Counted from the stretch's first letter, positions 15,760-61,998 are shown. The stretch is 64,000 bases of DNA from a cyanobacterium endosymbiont of Rhopalodia gibba (GCA_045159875.1 CP067995.1:2880001-2944000); one strand, 5' to 3'. Notes: generated from the sequence alone by a model not told the origin. Numbers and translations are program-made.

Positions 15760-16290
15760 TTAAGCGTGAGTAGAGGTGATAACTATATTTTCTTTTTGCT
15801 TTAAGTTGTACTCGAAAAAATCGAGTAGGATTGCCTGATGAACCTTTCCGATGGGATGAACCTTATCGGTTTTTGGAGAATAGCATCGTCCTTGTTTAAC
15901 TATATTCACAGGCACTAATCCAAAATCGACTCCTTCTTGCAAGACTAATTGTTCTATCGCAACAATTAAAGGAGAAGAATAAAGATAACGAGTAATATTC
16001 GGTTCATTATAAACTCTAAACTCAATTGGGTTAGGGACTTTATAATTAATTTCTTCAATTAATTCCCGTTTGAGTGCTTGTTCCGGGTTTTCTCCTAACT
16101 CTATATGACCCCCAAATAAACCCCAATGGTCGGGATAGGCGATCATAGATATATTATCACGCAACTGGAGCAAAAAATTATCCTCTTGGTAAACAATCGC
16201 CAAGGCGACCTGAAGAGGAGATTCAGCGTCTTTGTCCTCAAGGTTAGTTAGAGATAATTGAGGGGGAGACGAGTATTCATGCGATCGCAT
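15760..16290 (-). CDS. NUDIX hydrolase
   Basis: Nudix box GGHIELGENPEQALKRELIEEI. Confidence 0.9.
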   Translation of the reverse strand: MRSHEYSSPPQLSLTNLEDKDAESPLQVALAIVYQEDNFLLQLRDNISMIAYPDHWGLFGGHIELGENPEQALKRELIEEINYKVPNPIEFRVYNEPNITRYLYSSPLIVAIEQLVLQEGVDFGLVPVNIVKQGRCYSPKTDKVHPIGKVHQAILLDFFEYNLKQKENIVITSTHA

Positions 16291-16853: not shown

Positions 16854-16925
16854 TAAACTGAGATATTTTAACTGAAAGGATACCTTAAAATTTTTACTAG
16901 TTCCAAATTCATTAATTATTTGTCG

Positions 16926-17795
16926 ATGTCTTCTTCAACTTCTTTTATGTTAAATGGTAAGGCTTTAGCAAAAAAAATTCAGTGTAAACTCCAATCCTGG
17001 GTTCAAAAGCAACAACCCAGGATTGGCCGTCCTCCAGGGTTGGCAGTATTGATGGTAGGGGATGATCCGGCTAGTACTGTTTATGTCCATAACAAAGAGC
17101 GGGCTTGCGCTAAGGTAGGAATTGTTTCTTTTGGTCATCATTTCCCGGCTAATATCTCCCAAGACGAATTAGAAACCGTTATTGGACAACTAAATCAAGA
17201 TCCGCGAGTAGATGGGATATTAGTCCAGTTACCTTTGCCCGTCCATTTAGACGCAGTACAATTGTTATTGACTATTGACCCCGATAAAGATGTTGATGGT
17301 CTTCATCCGATGAATTTAGGACGGTTAATACGTGGTGAACCAGGGTTACGCAGTTGTACTCCCGCCGGGGTGATGCGTCTATTAGAAGAAAATCAGATCG
17401 AAGTGGCAGGTAAACACGCAGTGGTGGTAGGAAGAAGCATTTTAGTGGGCAAACCGTTAGGGTTAATGTTACTTGAAAAAAATGCTACAGTGACTATGGC
17501 TCATTCTCAAACCCGAGATTTACGAAATGTGACCCGTCAAGGGGATATTTTAATTGTTGCAGTAGGTAAACCAGAGTTCATTAACGCAGACATGGTTAAA
17601 CCTGGGGCAATAGTTATTGACGTAGGAATTAATCGTGTTGTTCGATCAGATGGAACTTCCCAACTGCTAGGGGATGTGGATTTCAACTCTGTGGCTGATA
17701 CAGCGCAATATGTTACGCCAGTTCCTGGGGGAGTAGGTCCGATGACTGTAGCGATGTTATTAAGCAATACGGTGTTAAGTTATCATCAACGGTAG
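16926..17795 (+). CDS. folD: Methylenetetrahydrofolate dehydrogenase/cyclohydrolase
   Basis: [44 protein letters not shown]. Confidence 0.97.
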
Positions 17796-17800
17796 ATACT

Positions 17801-18321
17801 ATGAATGAATTTTTTTAGAATTATACCTGTGAGTTATCCCAAGGGAAAGCCTCGCAGGTGTCCATTATCCCTGAGCAGGATGATGTAGACTTCGATTTGA
17901 TGATTTAAAGAGCCTGTAGGGAATATTATTACCCAATATATATAGTATTAATACTGATGCCTACCGTACATTTACGAGTTTTGTAAGTGGAACCTATTTA
18001 TTTAGAGTCACATCGGTTAAAGAAAGTTGTAAGTTTGCTATTGATGTTAGCCTAGTAACAATTCTTTTTTCTCGTAATTATTCCCATCATCTTGAAAATA
18101 GTGTTGTTTGGAAAGTTGCGGTGATTCCCACCGCGAAGAGCATGGATTTTAATCTTTATATTGAAAATCCCAAGGACCAAGCAATTATTCAAGATAGTAG
18201 TTTCGAGCCTTCTGCAACTTGTGTGTTTACTAGTAATATTGAAGGGAACTATTCTTTTCTGCTTAAATTCCTTAAAGGAATGAGAGATTTTAATTTTCAA
18301 ATTGAGGGATTGATAGAATAA
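17801..18321 (+). pseudogene. Remnant of a two-repeat-domain hypothetical protein
   Basis: VSIIPEQDDVDFDLMI* resembles downstream VAVIPTAKSMDFNLYI; frames interrupted. Confidence 0.35.
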
Positions 18322-18346
18322 TTTAATGAAATTAAGTGTATCCACA

Positions 18347-18405
18347 AGTTATCATGAATCCCCAAATATTTAAAATAACTAAATATTTGGGGATTCATGA
18401 TAACT
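18347..18405. repeat. Inverted repeat, 26-bp perfect arms, 7-nt loop
   Basis: agttatcatgaatccccaaatattta-aaataac-taaatatttggggattcatgataact. Confidence 0.95.
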
Positions 18406-18537
18406 CTTTTTAAGATGATAAAATCAGAAAAAATTCAACTTATTATTTATATCTTCTACTAGTTTTAGAGGGTTTTTTGATCAAAAAATACAATAATTTT
18501 TCCAATTCAACACTTAATTATTTTACAAATTTTTAAC

Positions 18538-18589
18538 TACAATAAATAAGCTTTTTAGCTACTTTGTGCTAAAAAGCTTATTTATTGTA
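18538..18589. repeat. Inverted repeat, 22-bp perfect arms, 8-nt loop
   Basis: tacaataaataagctttttagc-tactttgt-gctaaaaagcttatttattgta. Confidence 0.95.
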
Positions 18590-19173
18590 CGTCTAATGTC
18601 TAGTTTCAGCTTTACTCAAAAATTATTTTATATTCCTCTTTAGTTTAATTTATTTTTTAAACTTAAATCTTCTTTATTTGTAAGTAAGATATATGTGTTT
18701 TTAATTTCAACCTAATAAATTTTTTTTCAACTAGCTTTTAAACTATTTCACCTCTCGTTTAAGAACTTTTCTTTGATTGTATCATTGAGTATTAATCTAT
18801 TTCATCTTATGAAATCTATCTGCTACTATTTCAACTTATCGCACTAGTTTATTTAAAGGTAAAAAGTAAGCAGTCAAACGAGATTTTATATCTAAAATAC
18901 CAGACCTCAATAAATGCTGCTTCTAGCATAGAATTGATGTTCTACTCTCTTCATAAATTTACTTGCCTCACAGTAACTTAAAGCAGAGAAATTCGCGCCG
19001 TATGCCTGTATAACTTGTGGAGAGAAGTGTCACAAAATTTTCTACAGTTGTTAGACTAATCTTGTTAGGTAGTTCATTAGTATCTTCCCTATCTGGAGTC
19101 TTTCTTTTAAAATTAGAGATCTAAACGCTATATATAGAGTTTACTTTAGTTAGTCTCGGATAAAGAAGGGATA

Positions 19174-22100
19174 ATGAACCATAAACAGGAATGGCAAGAT
19201 AGCGGTGTTGACGAACAATTGATTAATCTCAATGTGATAGCTTTGGAGGGGAATTCTCCTTTAGAGTATTTGTTTTATTCTGATGCACTTTCTAGACGTA
19301 ATGATGGTCGGGTCAATAATTCCATGTTAAAACGCTATGAACATACAGAACGAGGAGGCTGGTGGTGTTCGGGAATAGATTTATTGACAGGCGGCGAGGA
19401 TTTATGGGGGTGTTTCAAACCCAATTCCCCTCGAACCAGTTATGATAAGCACAAGTTAATCAAATATGAGCATCCCCCTAAAACATCTACAGGGGTTTTT
19501 GCCTTGCGGGTTCCATTGCATCTATGGCGACAATTAGCCCAACGCCACCATCAAGATCTTACTCCAGAAGAGATTAATAATCAACTCCCAGATTTAGGTT
19601 TTTGGCAATGGGTGATAAATCATCCTTCGATTCCCCTTTGTATTACTGAAGGGGCTAAAAAAGCAGGGGCGTTATTAACAGCAGGATATGCTACAATCGC
19701 CCTTCCAGGAATTAATAGTGGCTATCGAACCCCTCGAGATAAGTTGGGCAACCGAATCGGAAAGTCTCATCTCATTCCCCAACTCGAAAAACTAGCGATT
19801 TCAGGGAGGAAAATTTATATTGCTTTTGATCAAGATAGTAAACCAAGTTCTATTAAAGAAGTGAATTCTGCTATTAGAAAATTGGGAAGTTTATTCACTC
19901 AAGCAGGATGTCAAGTTAACGTTATTGTTTGGCTACCGAAATGGGGAAAAGGAGTAGATGATTTTTTAGCGCATAAAGGACTCAAAACTTTTAATGAAAC
20001 TTACGAAAAAGCCTTATCTCTAGAAACTTGGAAAGCACAAAGCTTAAGACAACTAACTTATCCTTCTGATCTTGAAGTCAGTACTCGATATTTAGGAGAT
20101 TTACCCATTCCTACAACTGCTAAATTAGTAGGAATAAAATCTCCAATAGGGACTGGAAAAACTAAGGCTCTTGAAAAGATTGTTGAACAGGCAATCACTT
20201 CTCAACAAAAAATATTAGTAATTGGACATAGAGTTAAGTTAGTTGAGCAACTTTGTCAACGATTTAAAATTCCTTATTTAACAGAAATCGAAGGAAATAA
20301 TGTTAGAAATATAAAAGGATGTGGACTTTGCATTGATTCTCTTCATCCTAATTCTTCATTTAAATTTAATCCTAGTGATTGGACAGATAGTCTAATTATT
20401 ATCGATGAAATTGAACAGGTTTTATGGCATGGATTAAATTCAGATACTTGCAAGGAAAATAGAGTTTCTATCCTAAGATCTTTTAAGAAGTTACTTGAAC
20501 AAAGTTTATATTTTAAAGGAAGAATAGTTATTGCTGATGCAGACTTAAGTGACATTTCTCTTGACTATTTAATTTCTTTGATAGGAATTAAATTAAAACC
20601 CTTTATTGTAATCAACAATTGGAAATCTAACAATAAAGAAGCATGGGGAGTATATAATTATCCAGAAACTACCCCCCAAGAGTGGCTCAAAGATTTAATG
20701 CAACATATCCAGCAAGGGGGTAAACCTTTTGTTTGTCTATCCGCTCAGAAATTAACTAGTAAGTGGGGAACACAAACTCTAGAATTCTACTTAAAAAAAC
20801 GATTCCCAGAAGTGAAAATTCTAAGGATTGATTCTGAATCGTTAACTGACCCTAATCATAACGCTTACCAATCTATCAACCACCTTAATCAAATACTATT
20901 AAATTACGATATCATTTTGGCTAGTCCTTCCATTGAGACGGGAGTAAGTATCGATATTAAAGATCATTTTACCTCTGTTTGGGGATTAGCTCAAGGGATA
21001 CAAACTGCTACCTCTGTCTGTCAATCACTAGGACGAATTCGTGACAACATTCCTCGTTATCTTTGGTGTGCTTCCTATGGGTTTAATAAAGTGGGAAATG
21101 GTTCTACTTCAATTCCTAATTTGTTAACTTCTAGTAATCGCGTTACTCAGTTAAATATTAAGTTATTACAACAATCTGACCTAGAAGCCTTAGATGATAT
21201 AGATATAGAATTTCAAGCAGAATCTTTACTTTGTTGGGCAAAAATGGCGGTTCGCGTTAATGTTTCAATGATTCATTATCGAGAGTCTATATTAAGAAAT
21301 ATTACTGACCAAAATCATCCAGTTCTTCGTAAGAATAAAGTTTTCAAAATTCAAGATATAAAAAAATATAAAAAATATTCGTATGATAGTAAAAATTCTT
21401 GTCAATTAATGAAAGCAATTGAAAGTATTAGAGAACAAAATTATCAAGAAGAATGCCTAATGGTTGCCCAAGGCAAGGAGATTACTGATCAACAATATAA
21501 AGCGTTAAATAAGAGGTTAGTTAAAACTGTAGTTGAACGGCATAACATCAAAAAATATAATTTACAAAGACGCTATTGTATTGAAGTAACTCCTCAATTA
21601 GTTGCCTTAGATAATGAAGGATGGTACGACAGGATTCGTCTCCATTATTTCTTAACTTTAGGACGTTCTTATTTAGCAGATAGAGACACTATTCTTGCTA
21701 AAAAATTCATAGAAAAAGGACAGGGTAGTCTTTTTGTACCTGATTTTAATAGTTCTCAATTAGGGGGAATTATTGGGACAATGGAGGTATTGGGAATTTC
21801 GGTGTTACTCATGAACCATAAGCGAAAGTTAAAACCTACAGATGAAGACTTGCAAGCGATGGCAAGAATTGCTATTAAAAACCGCGCTGAAATCAAAACT
21901 ATTATGGGAATTGGTATTGCCAAAAATTCTAGTCCTATCACGATTATACGGCGGTTGTTGGATAAAATTGGCTATGGATTAACTTGTATTGGTTCTCAAA
22001 AAGTTAACAAAAAACGAGTGCGGGTGTATCAAGTTGTTCTTCCTAATGATGCTAGGCAAAAGGTGTTTAGACAATGGTGGATAAGAGATGGAAAATCCCC

Positions 22101-22209
22101 AGGCAGTTCTGAACCTTGGTTTGAAGAATATACAAATATTAAGTCAGAAATAACTAAAATTCAGCAAGAAGAAAATAAAAATTATATTCAATTAAGTTTA
22201 GAATTTTAG
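19174..22209 (+). CDS. CyRepA1-family plasmid-type replication protein (DUF3854/TOPRIM primase-like domain + SF2 helicase-like domain)
   Basis: 1011 aa; IKYEHPPK, ITEGAKKAGALL, IYIAFDQD, KGVDDF; Walker A SPIGTGKT, Walker B IIIDEIEQ, SPSIETGVSID, QSLGRIR. Confidence 0.88.
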   Translation: MNHKQEWQDSGVDEQLINLNVIALEGNSPLEYLFYSDALSRRNDGRVNNSMLKRYEHTERGGWWCSGIDLLTGGEDLWGCFKPNSPRTSYDKHKLIKYEHPPKTSTGVFALRVPLHLWRQLAQRHHQDLTPEEINNQLPDLGFWQWVINHPSIPLCITEGAKKAGALLTAGYATIALPGINSGYRTPRDKLGNRIGKSHLIPQLEKLAISGRKIYIAFDQDSKPSSIKEVNSAIRKLGSLFTQAGCQVNVIVWLPKWGKGVDDFLAHKGLKTFNETYEKALSLETWKAQSLRQLTYPSDLEVSTRYLGDLPIPTTAKLVGIKSPIGTGKTKALEKIVEQAITSQQKILVIGHRVKLVEQLCQRFKIPYLTEIEGNNVRNIKGCGLCIDSLHPNSSFKFNPSDWTDSLIIIDEIEQVLWHGLNSDTCKENRVSILRSFKKLLEQSLYFKGRIVIADADLSDISLDYLISLIGIKLKPFIVINNWKSNNKEAWGVYNYPETTPQEWLKDLMQHIQQGGKPFVCLSAQKLTSKWGTQTLEFYLKKRFPEVKILRIDSESLTDPNHNAYQSINHLNQILLNYDIILASPSIETGVSIDIKDHFTSVWGLAQGIQTATSVCQSLGRIRDNIPRYLWCASYGFNKVGNGSTSIPNLLTSSNRVTQLNIKLLQQSDLEALDDIDIEFQAESLLCWAKMAVRVNVSMIHYRESILRNITDQNHPVLRKNKVFKIQDIKKYKKYSYDSKNSCQLMKAIESIREQNYQEECLMVAQGKEITDQQYKALNKRLVKTVVERHNIKKYNLQRRYCIEVTPQLVALDNEGWYDRIRLHYFLTLGRSYLADRDTILAKKFIEKGQGSLFVPDFNSSQLGGIIGTMEVLGISVLLMNHKRKLKPTDEDLQAMARIAIKNRAEIKTIMGIGIAKNSSPITIIRRLLDKIGYGLTCIGSQKVNKKRVRVYQVVLPNDARQKVFRQWWIRDGKSPGSSEPWFEEYTNIKSEITKIQQEENKNYIQLSLEF

Positions 22210-22387
22210 AAATTTACTTCAATCCTTGATCTTAAAAACTATATTTTGTAGAGTGGATTAGATGAAGGTCAGATTTTGAATAAAAAAATCGTAAGTTCTT
22301 ATCTACGTCGTAATCCCTATGATGGGAAATCAATCCGAGTATACCGAAAGAATTCAATACGAGTGATAAATTACACCATATCTTATG

Positions 22388-22437
22388 CTAATACATCCGT
22401 AGATACCTTGTATACAAGGTATCTACGGATGTATTAG
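22388..22437. repeat. Perfect 50-bp palindrome with no spacer
   Basis: ctaatacatccgtagataccttgta|tacaaggtatctacggatgtattag, between the convergent rep gene and gor. Confidence 0.97.
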
Positions 22438-22550: not shown

Positions 22551-23906
22551 TTAACGCATGGTCACAAATTCTTCGGCAGAAGTGGGATGAATACCAACAG
22601 TAGCGTCAAAATCAGCCTTTTTAGCTCCCATTTTTACTGCAATCGCTACTCCTTGAATAATTTCGGCAGCATGATCTCCTACCATATGTGCGCCTAAAAC
22701 CCGATCACTTTCTTGATGAACAACAAGTTTCATCAAAGTTTTTTCCTGTTTGTCAGGCAATACATAATACATGGGACGAAACTCGCTACTATATACTTTG
22801 ATAGCATCTTTCCCATATTGTTCTTTAGCTTTTGCTTCAGTTAGTCCTACTGTAGCAGCTTCCGGAGTACTAAACACGGCAGATGGAACATTTTCATAAC
22901 TCATCAGACACGATTTTCCCCCAAATTTAGTGTCAGCGAAGGCGCGGCTTTCACTAATAGCGACGGGAGTTAGATTAATACGATCTGTACAGTCTCCGAC
23001 TGCATATATATTCGGTTCTGCTGTTTGATTATACTTGTCGACAACGATCACTCCATTTTGCACTTTAACCTCTGTATTTTCTAATCCTAAGTTCTCTAAG
23101 TTAGGAATACGCCCAGTAGCAGCCAACCCAATGATATCGGCTAACACCATGTCATTATTGCTATCCCCTTCTAGAGAAATTGTTAAACCTTGGTTTGTTT
23201 TTTTGACTTCAGAGATGGAAGAGTTCTTTAGGATGCGAATACCATGTTCTTCCATAGACTCTTGGATTGTGGTTCGGATATCGTCATCAAACCCCTTCAA
23301 GATTTTATCGCGGCGAATAATCTGGATAACATCTGACCCTAGTCCATGCATAATACAGGCAAATTCTACCCCAATGTAACCCCCTCCCCAAATGACGACG
23401 CGCTTTGGTTGTTCGGGTAGTTCAAACATAGCATCAGAGGTCACTAAATATTCTTTTCCTGGAATGTTAGGTTTAATGGGACGTCCCCCCACAGCAATTA
23501 AAACTTTATCAGTTGTAACTTTTTTGCCATCTCCGACTTCTACGGTATGGGGATCGAGTAATTTACCATGGGTACGATACAGTTGAACATTGGATTTATC
23601 CAACATTCTTTGGTAAATACCATTAAGACGACCAACTTCCCTATTGATAGCGGCTATCATTTTAGGCCAGTCGAGGATACTTTTAACCGGACTCCATCCG
23701 TATCCTTGGGATTCTTCCAAGACTCTAGGGACGTGAGAAGTATAAACCATTAACTTTTTGGGAATACATCCTCTATTAACACAGGTTCCCCCTAGACGAT
23801 TAAATTCTGCTAACCCGACTTTAGTTCCATATTCGGCAGCGCGTCTAGCAGCAGCAATTCCTCCTGAACCACCACCAATAACAAATAAATCAAAATCAAA
23901 ATTCAT
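22551..23906 (-). CDS. gor: Glutathione-disulfide reductase
   Basis: GGGSGG, GGTCVNRGCIPKK, GGGYIGVEFA, IHPTSAEEFVTMR. Confidence 0.96.
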   Translation of the reverse strand: MNFDFDLFVIGGGSGGIAAARRAAEYGTKVGLAEFNRLGGTCVNRGCIPKKLMVYTSHVPRVLEESQGYGWSPVKSILDWPKMIAAINREVGRLNGIYQRMLDKSNVQLYRTHGKLLDPHTVEVGDGKKVTTDKVLIAVGGRPIKPNIPGKEYLVTSDAMFELPEQPKRVVIWGGGYIGVEFACIMHGLGSDVIQIIRRDKILKGFDDDIRTTIQESMEEHGIRILKNSSISEVKKTNQGLTISLEGDSNNDMVLADIIGLAATGRIPNLENLGLENTEVKVQNGVIVVDKYNQTAEPNIYAVGDCTDRINLTPVAISESRAFADTKFGGKSCLMSYENVPSAVFSTPEAATVGLTEAKAKEQYGKDAIKVYSSEFRPMYYVLPDKQEKTLMKLVVHQESDRVLGAHMVGDHAAEIIQGVAIAVKMGAKKADFDATVGIHPTSAEEFVTMR

Positions 23907-24482: not shown

Positions 24483-24523
24483 AATAATTTAATTGATCTA
24501 CCTTATAGATCAATTAAATTATT
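24483..24523. repeat. Inverted repeat, 18-bp arms, 5-nt loop
   Basis: aataatttaattgatcta-cctta-tagatcaattaaattatt. Confidence 0.9.
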
Positions 24524-48587: not shown

Positions 48588-48633
48588 AATATCCGTTCCC
48601 ATCTCTTTTTAAAAAGAGATGGGAACGGATATT
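48588..48633. repeat. Perfect 46-bp palindrome
   Basis: aatatccgttcccatctcttttt|aaaaagagatgggaacggatatt. Confidence 0.97.
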
Positions 48634-56615: not shown

Positions 56616-56659
56616 AATTAGTTGTGCTACTTTTTGCGCAAAAAGTAGCACAACTAATT
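56616..56659. repeat. Perfect 44-bp palindrome
   Basis: aattagttgtgctactttttgc|gcaaaaagtagcacaactaatt. Confidence 0.97.
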
Positions 56660-61374: not shown

Positions 61375-61998
61375 TTAGGTAATTAGGGTACATGACGAGT
61401 AGGCACGCCAAACTCCTACCAAAACCCCTTGAATTTCTACTTCGGAAGTTTTAAGTTCCATCGGTTTATACTGAGAATCTGATGGTTTAAGTAATACCTT
61501 TTCACCATTTTGATAGAATCGTTTTAGAGTTGTTCCATGACCTTGAACAATGGCAGCTACAATTTCTCCATCTTTGGGGTGTTCATCTCTAGATAAGGAT
61601 CGCATGATAGCTAAATCGCCTTCGGTGATTAAATCTCCGATCATGCTGTCTCCTATAATCTGTAACCCATAGTAATTTTTCTGCTCAGTGATTTCAGATA
61701 AATCTAATTTAGTTTGCTCATCGGCATGGAGTTCAACTAATGTGCCAGCCGTAATCGCTCCTACAATAGGAATACCCTTGGGTTTAGGACGTAAAATTTG
61801 AATTGTACGGGCTTTGCCTTCTATCCAATCGATATAACCTTTATTTCGTAATTTTTCTAGACGACTCTGAACAGGAGCTGGTGATCGTAAATGCATAGCG
61901 TGCATCATCTGGCGGATAGAAGGAGCATACTGGGTTTTGTCAATATACTCAACTAACCAGTCGAATAGTTCTTGTTGGGCAGGAGTTAAAGATTCCAT
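61375..61998 (-). CDS. lexA: LexA repressor
   Basis: LTPAQQELF..PSIRQMM..SPAPVQSRL..GKARTI; Ala-Gly site (ITAG), GDSM, TLKR. Confidence 0.95.
   Translation of the reverse strand: MESLTPAQQELFDWLVEYIDKTQYAPSIRQMMHAMHLRSPAPVQSRLEKLRNKGYIDWIEGKARTIQILRPKPKGIPIVGAITAGTLVELHADEQTKLDLSEITEQKNYYGLQIIGDSMIGDLITEGDLAIMRSLSRDEHPKDGEIVAAIVQGHGTTLKRFYQNGEKVLLKPSDSQYKPMELKTSEVEIQGVLVGVWRAYSSCTLIT

Follow-up and report, generated by a model that had tools for sequence, protein, structure and literature searches.

We analysed a stretch of 64,000 nt from the cyanobacterial endosymbiont of Rhopalodia gibba (G000:C1:2880001-2944000, called the window; positions are counted from its first nucleotide). The chromosome of this endosymbiont, C1, has a size of 3,058,178 bp with 33.9% GC, and a second contig, C2, has 6,464 bp. 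At 19174..22209 on the plus strand (C1:2899174-2902209) the window contains an open reading frame (ORF) for a protein of 1011 amino acids (aa) that belongs to the CyRepA1 family. The ORF is located between folD and gor. Two short boxes are present ahead of its start codon, two perfect hairpins are found further upstream, and a perfect 50-bp palindrome follows 179 bp past the stop codon. A preliminary description of this DNA had proposed that the ORF is a domesticated plasmid initiator of replication and that the flanking hairpins are its origin or priming sites.

The translation of the ORF holds the motifs ITEGAKK, AFDQD, GVDD, GTGKT, DEIE and QSLGRIR. The Pfam scan matched DUF3854 (E 5e-52, aa 143-270) and ResIII (E 5e-9, aa 316-370), and PF12965 reached 175.6 bits (cut-off 23). 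With the CyRepA1 model NF042913 a score of 542.2 bits was obtained (cut-off 200, aa 316-937). Slr7037, the original CyRepA1 from plasmid pSYSA of Synechocystis PCC 6803, has the same architecture of DUF3854 and superfamily 2 (SF2) helicase and reaches 596 bits with the same model. The closest named proteins come from spheroid bodies, the cyanobacterial endosymbionts of rhopalodiacean diatoms. The length, the motifs and the family of the protein, as well as the position between folD and gor, agreed with the preliminary description. No other DUF3854 gene was detected in the genome, and C2 gave no DUF3854 match.

The same description had named the ORF a plasmid-type CyRepA1 primase-helicase. Its status as an intact member of the family was borne out, but it is not a stray plasmid gene. 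It is encoded on a chromosome and not on a plasmid. A protein match was present in 55 of the 61 genomes searched (G000 counted in), and all 36 genomes of the same family, two of them only 1.4-1.5 Mb in size, had a full-length best match with 54-91% identity. Among 72,556 plasmid records 243 contained a homologue, all with less than 60% identity (best 51%). A tree of 40 proteins was computed with a quick search under LG+G4. In this tree the copies that were the best hit of their genome (21) formed one clade, with a value of 100 in the Shimodaira-Hasegawa-like approximate likelihood ratio test (SH-aLRT), and the 19 plasmid or second copies, Slr7037 among them, fell outside it; the groups were set by best hit, which is partly circular, and 13 of the 21 copies are on contigs of at least 1.4 Mb. 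Within this clade the branching follows kinship and the branches are short. The ratio of non-synonymous to synonymous substitution rates (dN/dS) among the five endosymbiont copies was 0.13-0.19, compared to 0.09-0.24 for folD and 0.12-0.16 for gor. Twelve residues (E159, G160, K162, K163, D219, K259, G260, D262, G328, K329, D411 and E412) were invariant in 47 aligned orthologues and paralogues. With these dN/dS values and invariant catalytic residues, neither relaxed selection nor loss is seen in the sister endosymbionts, and the earlier argument that survival of the gene implies selection is supported. The ORF is the G000 copy of an old branch of the CyRepA1 family that resides on chromosomes and is passed on vertically, namely the group of Synechocystis slr0554. 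We regard this identity, the ancestry and the constraint as firmly established.

A selfish or defence-type element that combines Toprim and helicase, with no role in host replication, is extremely improbable. In its favour, the family is abundant on plasmids and often has several copies per genome. Against it stand the strictly vertical inheritance of one copy in each genome, seen with short branches in the tree, the retention in endosymbiont genomes of 1.4-3 Mb with housekeeping-like dN/dS, and the lack of mobile-element genes nearby. As stated in the preliminary description, no integrase, partition or conjugation domains were found by the domain scan among the 31 window ORFs of at least 100 aa.

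Chromosomal copies of CyRepA were already known and published as a table. According to Sakamaki et al. 2024 (PMC10899382, Supplementary Data 1), a single chromosomal CyRepA is present in Synechocystis 6803 (slr0554), Nostoc 7120 (alr3925), PCC 7002 (A0214), UCYN-A (UCYN_11190) and Nostoc azollae (Aazo_4775), and one each in two spheroid-body genomes; G000 is absent from the table. By identity and tree these copies belong to the same orthologous group as the gene described here. The study counts chromosomal CyRepA in 80 of 145 cyanobacteria and states that the function needs validation; its available text offers no analysis of fold, cis-elements or selection. Rep function is reported only for Slr7037 and for ORF B of pCC5.2; CyRepA1 of pSYSA and CyRepA2 of pCC5.2 are true Rep proteins (PMC9978351, PMC10079941). 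Plasmid pSYSA is described as requiring Slr7037 for its persistence as a separate replicon (PMC9978351). In contrast to Slr7037, the G000 gene is located on a 3.06 Mb chromosome, belongs to a separate clade, and has at most 51% identity to any plasmid copy.

The alignment of the endosymbiont sequences revealed conservation of the 130 bp ahead of the start codon. Box A (19087..19100, plus strand, matrix score 13.1) overlaps the -35 position. Box B (19128..19141, plus strand, score 19.2) is palindromic and is also matched on the minus strand from 19124 (score 20.0); it also turned up as a repeat in the inverted-repeat search. The boxes are 41 bp apart, and a -10-like hexamer at 19108..19113 (plus strand) lies between them, which was read by eye, while the promoter scan called none here. 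A pair of boxes with 40-42 nt spacing was found in 13 of 19 upstream regions of chromosomal orthologues, across distant families; the other six contained at most one site with the loose pattern. The pair was missing from all 16 plasmid or second copies, Slr7037 among them. When the whole chromosome was scanned with the box matrix, which was built from 20 sites, boxes A and B were the only same-strand pair 38-44 nt apart. Most likely, the conserved cis element at this locus consists of these two short boxes bracketing the putative promoter of the gene, and not of the long hairpins. The layout fits an operator around a promoter and also fits the layout of many plasmids, in which the Rep gene is beside the origin. 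Whether the protein binds its own upstream boxes, as we predict, is an even bet.

The long hairpins had been given a central role in the preliminary description, and their existence is not in doubt. The first (18347-18372 / 18380-18405) has arms of 26 nt and a loop of 7 nt, the second (18538-18559 / 18568-18589) has arms of 22 nt and a loop of 8 nt, and the downstream palindrome (22388-22437, 25+25) sits between convergent genes. All three are 100% complementary, and the DNA around the upstream two is AT-rich as described (GC of 18001-19000 is 0.276). We scanned the genome for perfect hairpins with arms of at least 16 nt and loops of at most 12 nt. The chromosome holds 292 of them, 93 with arms of at least 22 nt. 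Simple arithmetic gives a chance expectation of about 0.04 for perfect hairpins with arms of at least 16 nt in 3 Mb of the same composition. Since 292 were seen, the hairpins are not chance sequence, and since they occur genome-wide, they are not special to the CyRepA locus. The 292 hairpins are nearly all located in non-coding DNA, and almost all of the 93 long ones (92) fall outside long ORFs. Four further hairpins were seen in the window at 692-742, 24483-24523, 48588-48633 and 56616-56659.

The sister endosymbionts G001, G003, G004 and G006 revealed the history of these structures. No perfect hairpin was present at either upstream site in any of the four sister loci, and both upstream hairpins are specific to the G000 lineage. 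In the 26-nt hairpin the left arm corresponds to a single-copy sequence in each of G006 and G001, while the right arm is an insertion only present in G000. By this alignment the hairpin is an inverted duplication, and it begins 29 bp past the end of a dead gene (17801-18318). At the site of the 22-nt hairpin the aligned sequence of G003 is not self-complementary, and G003 carries a different 27-nt hairpin nearby. In a DNA run from another sample (X5) the loop of the 22-nt hairpin (18560-18567) is, as we read the listed changes, present in reverse-complement form; such a loop flip is the expected product of strand switching within a palindrome. The downstream palindrome has a counterpart in G001 with 16-nt perfect arms, in which three positions are changed on both arms compared to G000, and imperfect counterparts in G006 and G003. 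It is, from this comparison, older than the upstream hairpins. The 15-kb orthologue loci of the four other endosymbionts (60 kb) hold seven hairpins, all at non-orthologous places, and no long perfect hairpin was found in the 11 orthologue loci from non-endosymbionts (165 kb), the AT-rich G019 and G033 included.

Some observations speak for the flanking long hairpins as cruciform origin or priming sites of a domesticated plasmid initiator. The hairpins are real and perfect, and three of them with arms of at least 22 nt inside 4.2 kb occur at only two places in the chromosome, the CyRepA locus being one. The both-arm changes in the downstream palindrome, which has a counterpart in three sisters, and the death of dnaA (see below) point in the same direction. 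Matching changes on both arms of a palindrome can also come from templated repair within the palindrome. The absence of the upstream hairpins from all four sister loci, with one arm being a recent insertion, the 292 unique-sequence hairpins across the genome in contrast to none in the 11 non-endosymbiont loci, and the position of the downstream palindrome between convergent genes all count against this role, which we consider very improbable. The long hairpins are very probably unrelated to the function of the CyRepA gene. They look like ongoing inverted-duplication mutagenesis in decaying non-coding DNA and would be by-products of template switching with no part in the function of the gene.

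Other origins of the hairpins were considered and dropped. Loss of the SbcCD hairpin nuclease was dropped as an explanation, since SbcD, the subunit searched for, is intact (238 bits). A role as terminators did not agree with the unbiased orientation of the genes flanking the 93 long hairpins (26 convergent, 24 divergent, 42 tandem, 1 inside an ORF), and no T-tract terminator was called at 22388-22437. The hairpins are no repeat family: their arms are unique sequences, and only three 12-mers are common to any two of the 93. A known RNA was not found at the hairpins, which gave only sub-threshold matches to microRNA precursors, as any long hairpin does. Short-read contigs of four public runs break at the palindrome centres (18363-18369, 18557-18570 and 22408-22418), and assemblies of such genomes are likely to fragment or to be mis-joined at palindromes. 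RNA-library contigs X2-X4 do not demonstrate transcription: they span all of the 6.2-kb stretch, its non-coding DNA included, and are interrupted at the palindromes. The endosymbiont-genome literature searched did not mention palindromes or hairpins. The practical outcome is a correction: the hairpins are a separate, genome-wide mutational phenomenon and are unfit as origin markers.

The full-length structure model of the protein had a predicted local distance difference test (pLDDT) of 86 and a predicted template modelling score (pTM) of 0.84; the N-terminal 300 residues modelled alone reached a pLDDT of 92. Residues 1-290 (19174..20043, plus strand) are modelled as a primase RNA-polymerase domain of DnaG type, which includes DUF3854/Toprim and the invariant residues E159, D219 and D262. 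The N-terminal model matched the domain of Bacillus subtilis DnaG (5guj) with Z 14.0 over 223 aligned residues and a root-mean-square deviation (rmsd) of 3.5, and the primase parts of T7 gp4 (Z 11.9), T4 gp61 and Twinkle with Z 11.2-11.9, while other Toprim proteins gave Z 7.3 or less. Thus the whole RNA-polymerase domain of DnaG is matched by the N-terminal 300 residues. The zinc-binding domain of DnaG is lacking: residue 1 of the model aligns to DnaG residue 122-138 in all four DnaG structures listed, and the Pfam scan of the protein found no zinc-finger family.

Residues 291-1011 (20044..22209, plus strand; G328, K329, D411 and E412 invariant) are modelled as an SF2 helicase core with a C-terminal domain like that of the herpesvirus origin-binding protein. 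The top structural match was the origin-binding protein UL9 of herpes simplex virus 1 (HSV-1) bound to OriS (PDB 9hgj, 9hgi; Foldseek E 2e-14). UL9 matched the full model with VIA Z 23.4 and 491-517 aligned residues (model 267-978, chain 16-833), so that the alignment takes in the modelled helicase and C-terminal DNA-binding domain and covers the greater part of either protein. Generic SF2 helicase cores gave Z 19.5 or less over about 320 residues, and UL9 was ahead by 4 Z units and about 170 residues. The likeness is not seen at the level of sequence searches: Pfam PF02399 (Herpes_ori_bp) scored 14.5 bits with a cut-off of 20 (E 0.0093), and the PDB sequence search gave E 0.9-1.0. The two proteins differ in that identity is only 15-16%, UL9 has no primase domain, and the rmsd is 12-13 A, which is due to differently oriented domains. 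UL9 recognises paired boxes flanking an AT-rich spacer. By analogy, these may resemble the two boxes upstream of the CyRepA gene.

According to the models, a DnaG-type primase domain without the zinc-binding domain and a UL9-like SF2 helicase are combined in one chain. T7 gp4 and Twinkle likewise have primase and helicase in one chain, but the helicase described here is SF2 and not of the DnaB/gp4 type, and G000 also keeps a DnaG and a DnaB of its own. From the DnaG-like and UL9-like folds it follows that the predicted parts for duplex recognition, unwinding and priming are present, with the likeness of folds being no proof of activity.

A search for dnaA recovered only a stop-ridden relic. 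The best TIGR00362 (DnaA) match in G000 reached 37.1 bits, far from the cut-off of 343.9, and contained six stops. With DnaA of the free-living congener G007, tblastn gave fragments of 46-57% identity at C1:2619290-2619977, about 280 kb from the CyRepA gene. Because G007 DnaA aligns in fragments with stops, we consider this stretch a dead dnaA relic. No dnaA match was found in the four sisters, nor in G014, G029, G019, G033, G043, G051 or G057; the genomes without a match include both g13 genomes of 1.4-1.5 Mb. That symbiotic cyanobacteria and spheroid bodies have lost dnaA has been published (PMC7198777; bioRxiv 10.64898/2026.03.19.712447). The 2026 preprint calls dnaA universally absent in spheroid bodies, and in G000 a recognisable relic is left.

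DnaA-free chromosome replication in cyanobacteria is described in PMC7198777, the available text of which names no factor, and the literature searched contained no paper that connects CyRepA with chromosome replication. The main text of PMC10899382 does not mention dnaA at all. Its table shows no chromosomal CyRepA in S. elongatus 7942 or in 12 Prochlorococcus strains. The resulting pattern, with DnaA-dependent model species lacking the gene and DnaA-independent species and symbionts carrying it, is suggestive. It is not clean, because some dnaA-less species also lack the gene.

Our best overall explanation, to which we assign a probability of about 45%, is a chromosomal CyRepA gene that has its own boxes, while the long hairpins are irrelevant to it. 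In this scheme the protein would bind the two boxes around its own promoter and control its own synthesis. It might also open the DNA at the boxes and lay a primer, a step we regard as doubtful; gene and boxes would then be a resident Rep-plus-origin module from which replication starts without DnaA. That the chromosomal CyRepA protein in fact starts chromosome replication without DnaA is a tentative proposal, well short of an even chance, for which binding, unwinding and priming are predicted from the models. The more specific view that proteins of this clade are the missing DnaA-independent initiator of the lineage, with UL9-like box binding, opening of an AT-rich spacer and DnaG-like priming, appears rather unlikely at present.

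Several observations weigh against a role in initiation. The presence of the gene does not track the loss of dnaA: an orthologue was found in 11 of the 14 genomes in which no dnaA match exceeded the cut-off. The 47 dnaA-positive genomes carry it in roughly three of four cases as well, and it is present in all 28 of them that belong to the same family. Among the genomes without a dnaA match, G037 had only 34%-identical copies on small contigs, and G051 and G053 had none. The dnaA-less Cyanobacterium aponinum and C. stanieri are listed with no CyRepA, and Geminocystis with plasmid copies only (PMC10899382). The orthologue is also present in Synechocystis and Nostoc 7120, for which replication from numerous sites is reported (PMC7198777). 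Single boxes are not enriched in the chromosome (59 matches compared to 67-98 in five shuffles), and the pair occurs once. Boxes that bracket a promoter can be accounted for by plain transcriptional control, perhaps through another regulator. Since DnaB, DnaG and PriA are intact in G000, other DnaA-independent routes exist.

The origin signals did not help the initiation proposal either. We determined the significance of skews by permutation of windows or genes. For G000 neither the GC skew (p 0.05) nor the coding sequence (CDS) skew (p 0.18) was significant; the faint minima are near 2.0 Mb, whereas the gene is at 2.90 Mb. For G033 the skews were not significant either (p 0.08 for GC, p 0.14 for CDS). 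Here the gene is at 1.26 Mb, and the extremes fall at 0.04 and 0.91-0.97 Mb. Irregular skews are reported for related polyploid cyanobacteria (PMC7198777), and because the skew is irregular in the clade, the flat skews neither support nor exclude an origin at the locus. The cumulative GC and CDS skew minima of G000 coincide at about 1.98-2.01 Mb of C1, which may be the weak remnant of an old origin or noise. For PCC 7002 the read-depth peak is published as lying around dnaA, at position 1.

Many of these points can be read in favour of a protein that acts in replication or repair without being the initiator, for example by re-priming or restart at stalled forks, with the boxes only regulating the gene. 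Initiation without DnaA would then occur via PriA at R-loops or D-loops. Most dnaA-positive relatives carry the gene as well, CyRepA is missing altogether from some dnaA-less cyanobacteria, PriA, DnaB and DnaG are intact, the boxes at the -35 and +1 positions read like an operator, and replication from many sites is reported for the related model species (PMC7198777). Nevertheless, every characterised member of the family is a Rep protein, the UL9-like C-terminal domain in the model suggests a protein that recognises particular sequences in duplex DNA and not fork structures, and no restart function for the CyRepA family was found in the literature searched. We consider such a role in replication or repair possible but not probable.

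The second contig was considered as the actual target of the protein. C2 (6464 bp) is a feoAB plasmid without a recognisable Rep gene; it encodes an aquaporin, a 363-aa protein, FeoB, FeoA and a tyrosine recombinase. The 363-aa protein has only a weak ribbon-helix-helix match (CopG_antitoxin, 24.9 bits with a cut-off of 28). All spheroid bodies reportedly contain this small conserved plasmid, with 1-2 copies for each chromosome (PMC11131595; bioRxiv 10.64898/2026.03.19.712447), and the single DUF3854 gene of the genome would be available to replicate it in trans. However, the box matrix gave no match on C2, and a comparison of C2 with the flanks of the gene revealed no significant similarity, just short AT-rich chance matches. 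Moreover, the orthologue is kept in G033, a single-contig assembly with no plasmid, and across free-living relatives. Replication of the plasmid in trans by the chromosomal protein is therefore improbable. C2 also carries a perfect hairpin with 35-nt arms; the coordinates noted for features of C2 such as the 363-aa protein and the hairpin are C2:810-1901 and C2:2143-2218.

The neighbourhood of the CyRepA gene is stable among the endosymbionts only. The upstream neighbour folD (16920..17795, plus strand; Pfam THF_DHG_CYH_C and THF_DHG_CYH), a housekeeping gene, has 89-91% identity in the sister endosymbionts. The convergent downstream neighbour gor (22551..23906, minus strand; Pfam Pyr_redox_2 and Pyr_redox_dim), of the glutathione reductase type, has 92%. 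The order ctp-nudix-orf179-folD-X-gor-orf204-orf297, in which X is the CyRepA gene, is common to all five endosymbiont genomes, i.e., it is the same in all four sisters. This order was not seen in G007 or 10 further genomes, and no neighbours of the orthologue were conserved beyond the endosymbionts in 11 loci, sharing being seen only between the two g13 genomes. The dead gene between folD and the hairpins (17801..18318, plus strand) is the remnant of a gene for 172 aa. By tblastn it matched the ORF of G001 in two frames (71-77% identity) and is interrupted by an internal stop. This gene is intact and full-length in G001, G006 (87%) and G004 (83%) and is broken in G003 too. The NUDIX gene (15760-16290, also loci L022 and L024) looks less constrained (dN/dS 0.72, G000 compared to G003); in G004 it matches as two pieces of 44-51% identity, and it may be decaying in some endosymbionts. 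An intact lexA is kept at 61375-61998 in the reduced genome. The supplement of PMC11131595 contains no expression data on the CyRepA gene.

How replication starts without DnaA in many cyanobacteria, in their endosymbiotic descendants and ultimately in plastids is an unsolved problem. The CyRepA gene is a concrete candidate: it encodes in a self-contained form a predicted primase and a helicase of the origin-binding type, is inherited with the chromosome and has a private conserved DNA element. The gene is kept in three endosymbiont lineages that are independently dnaA-less. If the protein does start replication, it would be the sole initiator left in the dnaA-less endosymbionts, i.e., the spheroid bodies, UCYN-A and Nostoc azollae, and it would be a possible point of host control over the division of the endosymbiont.

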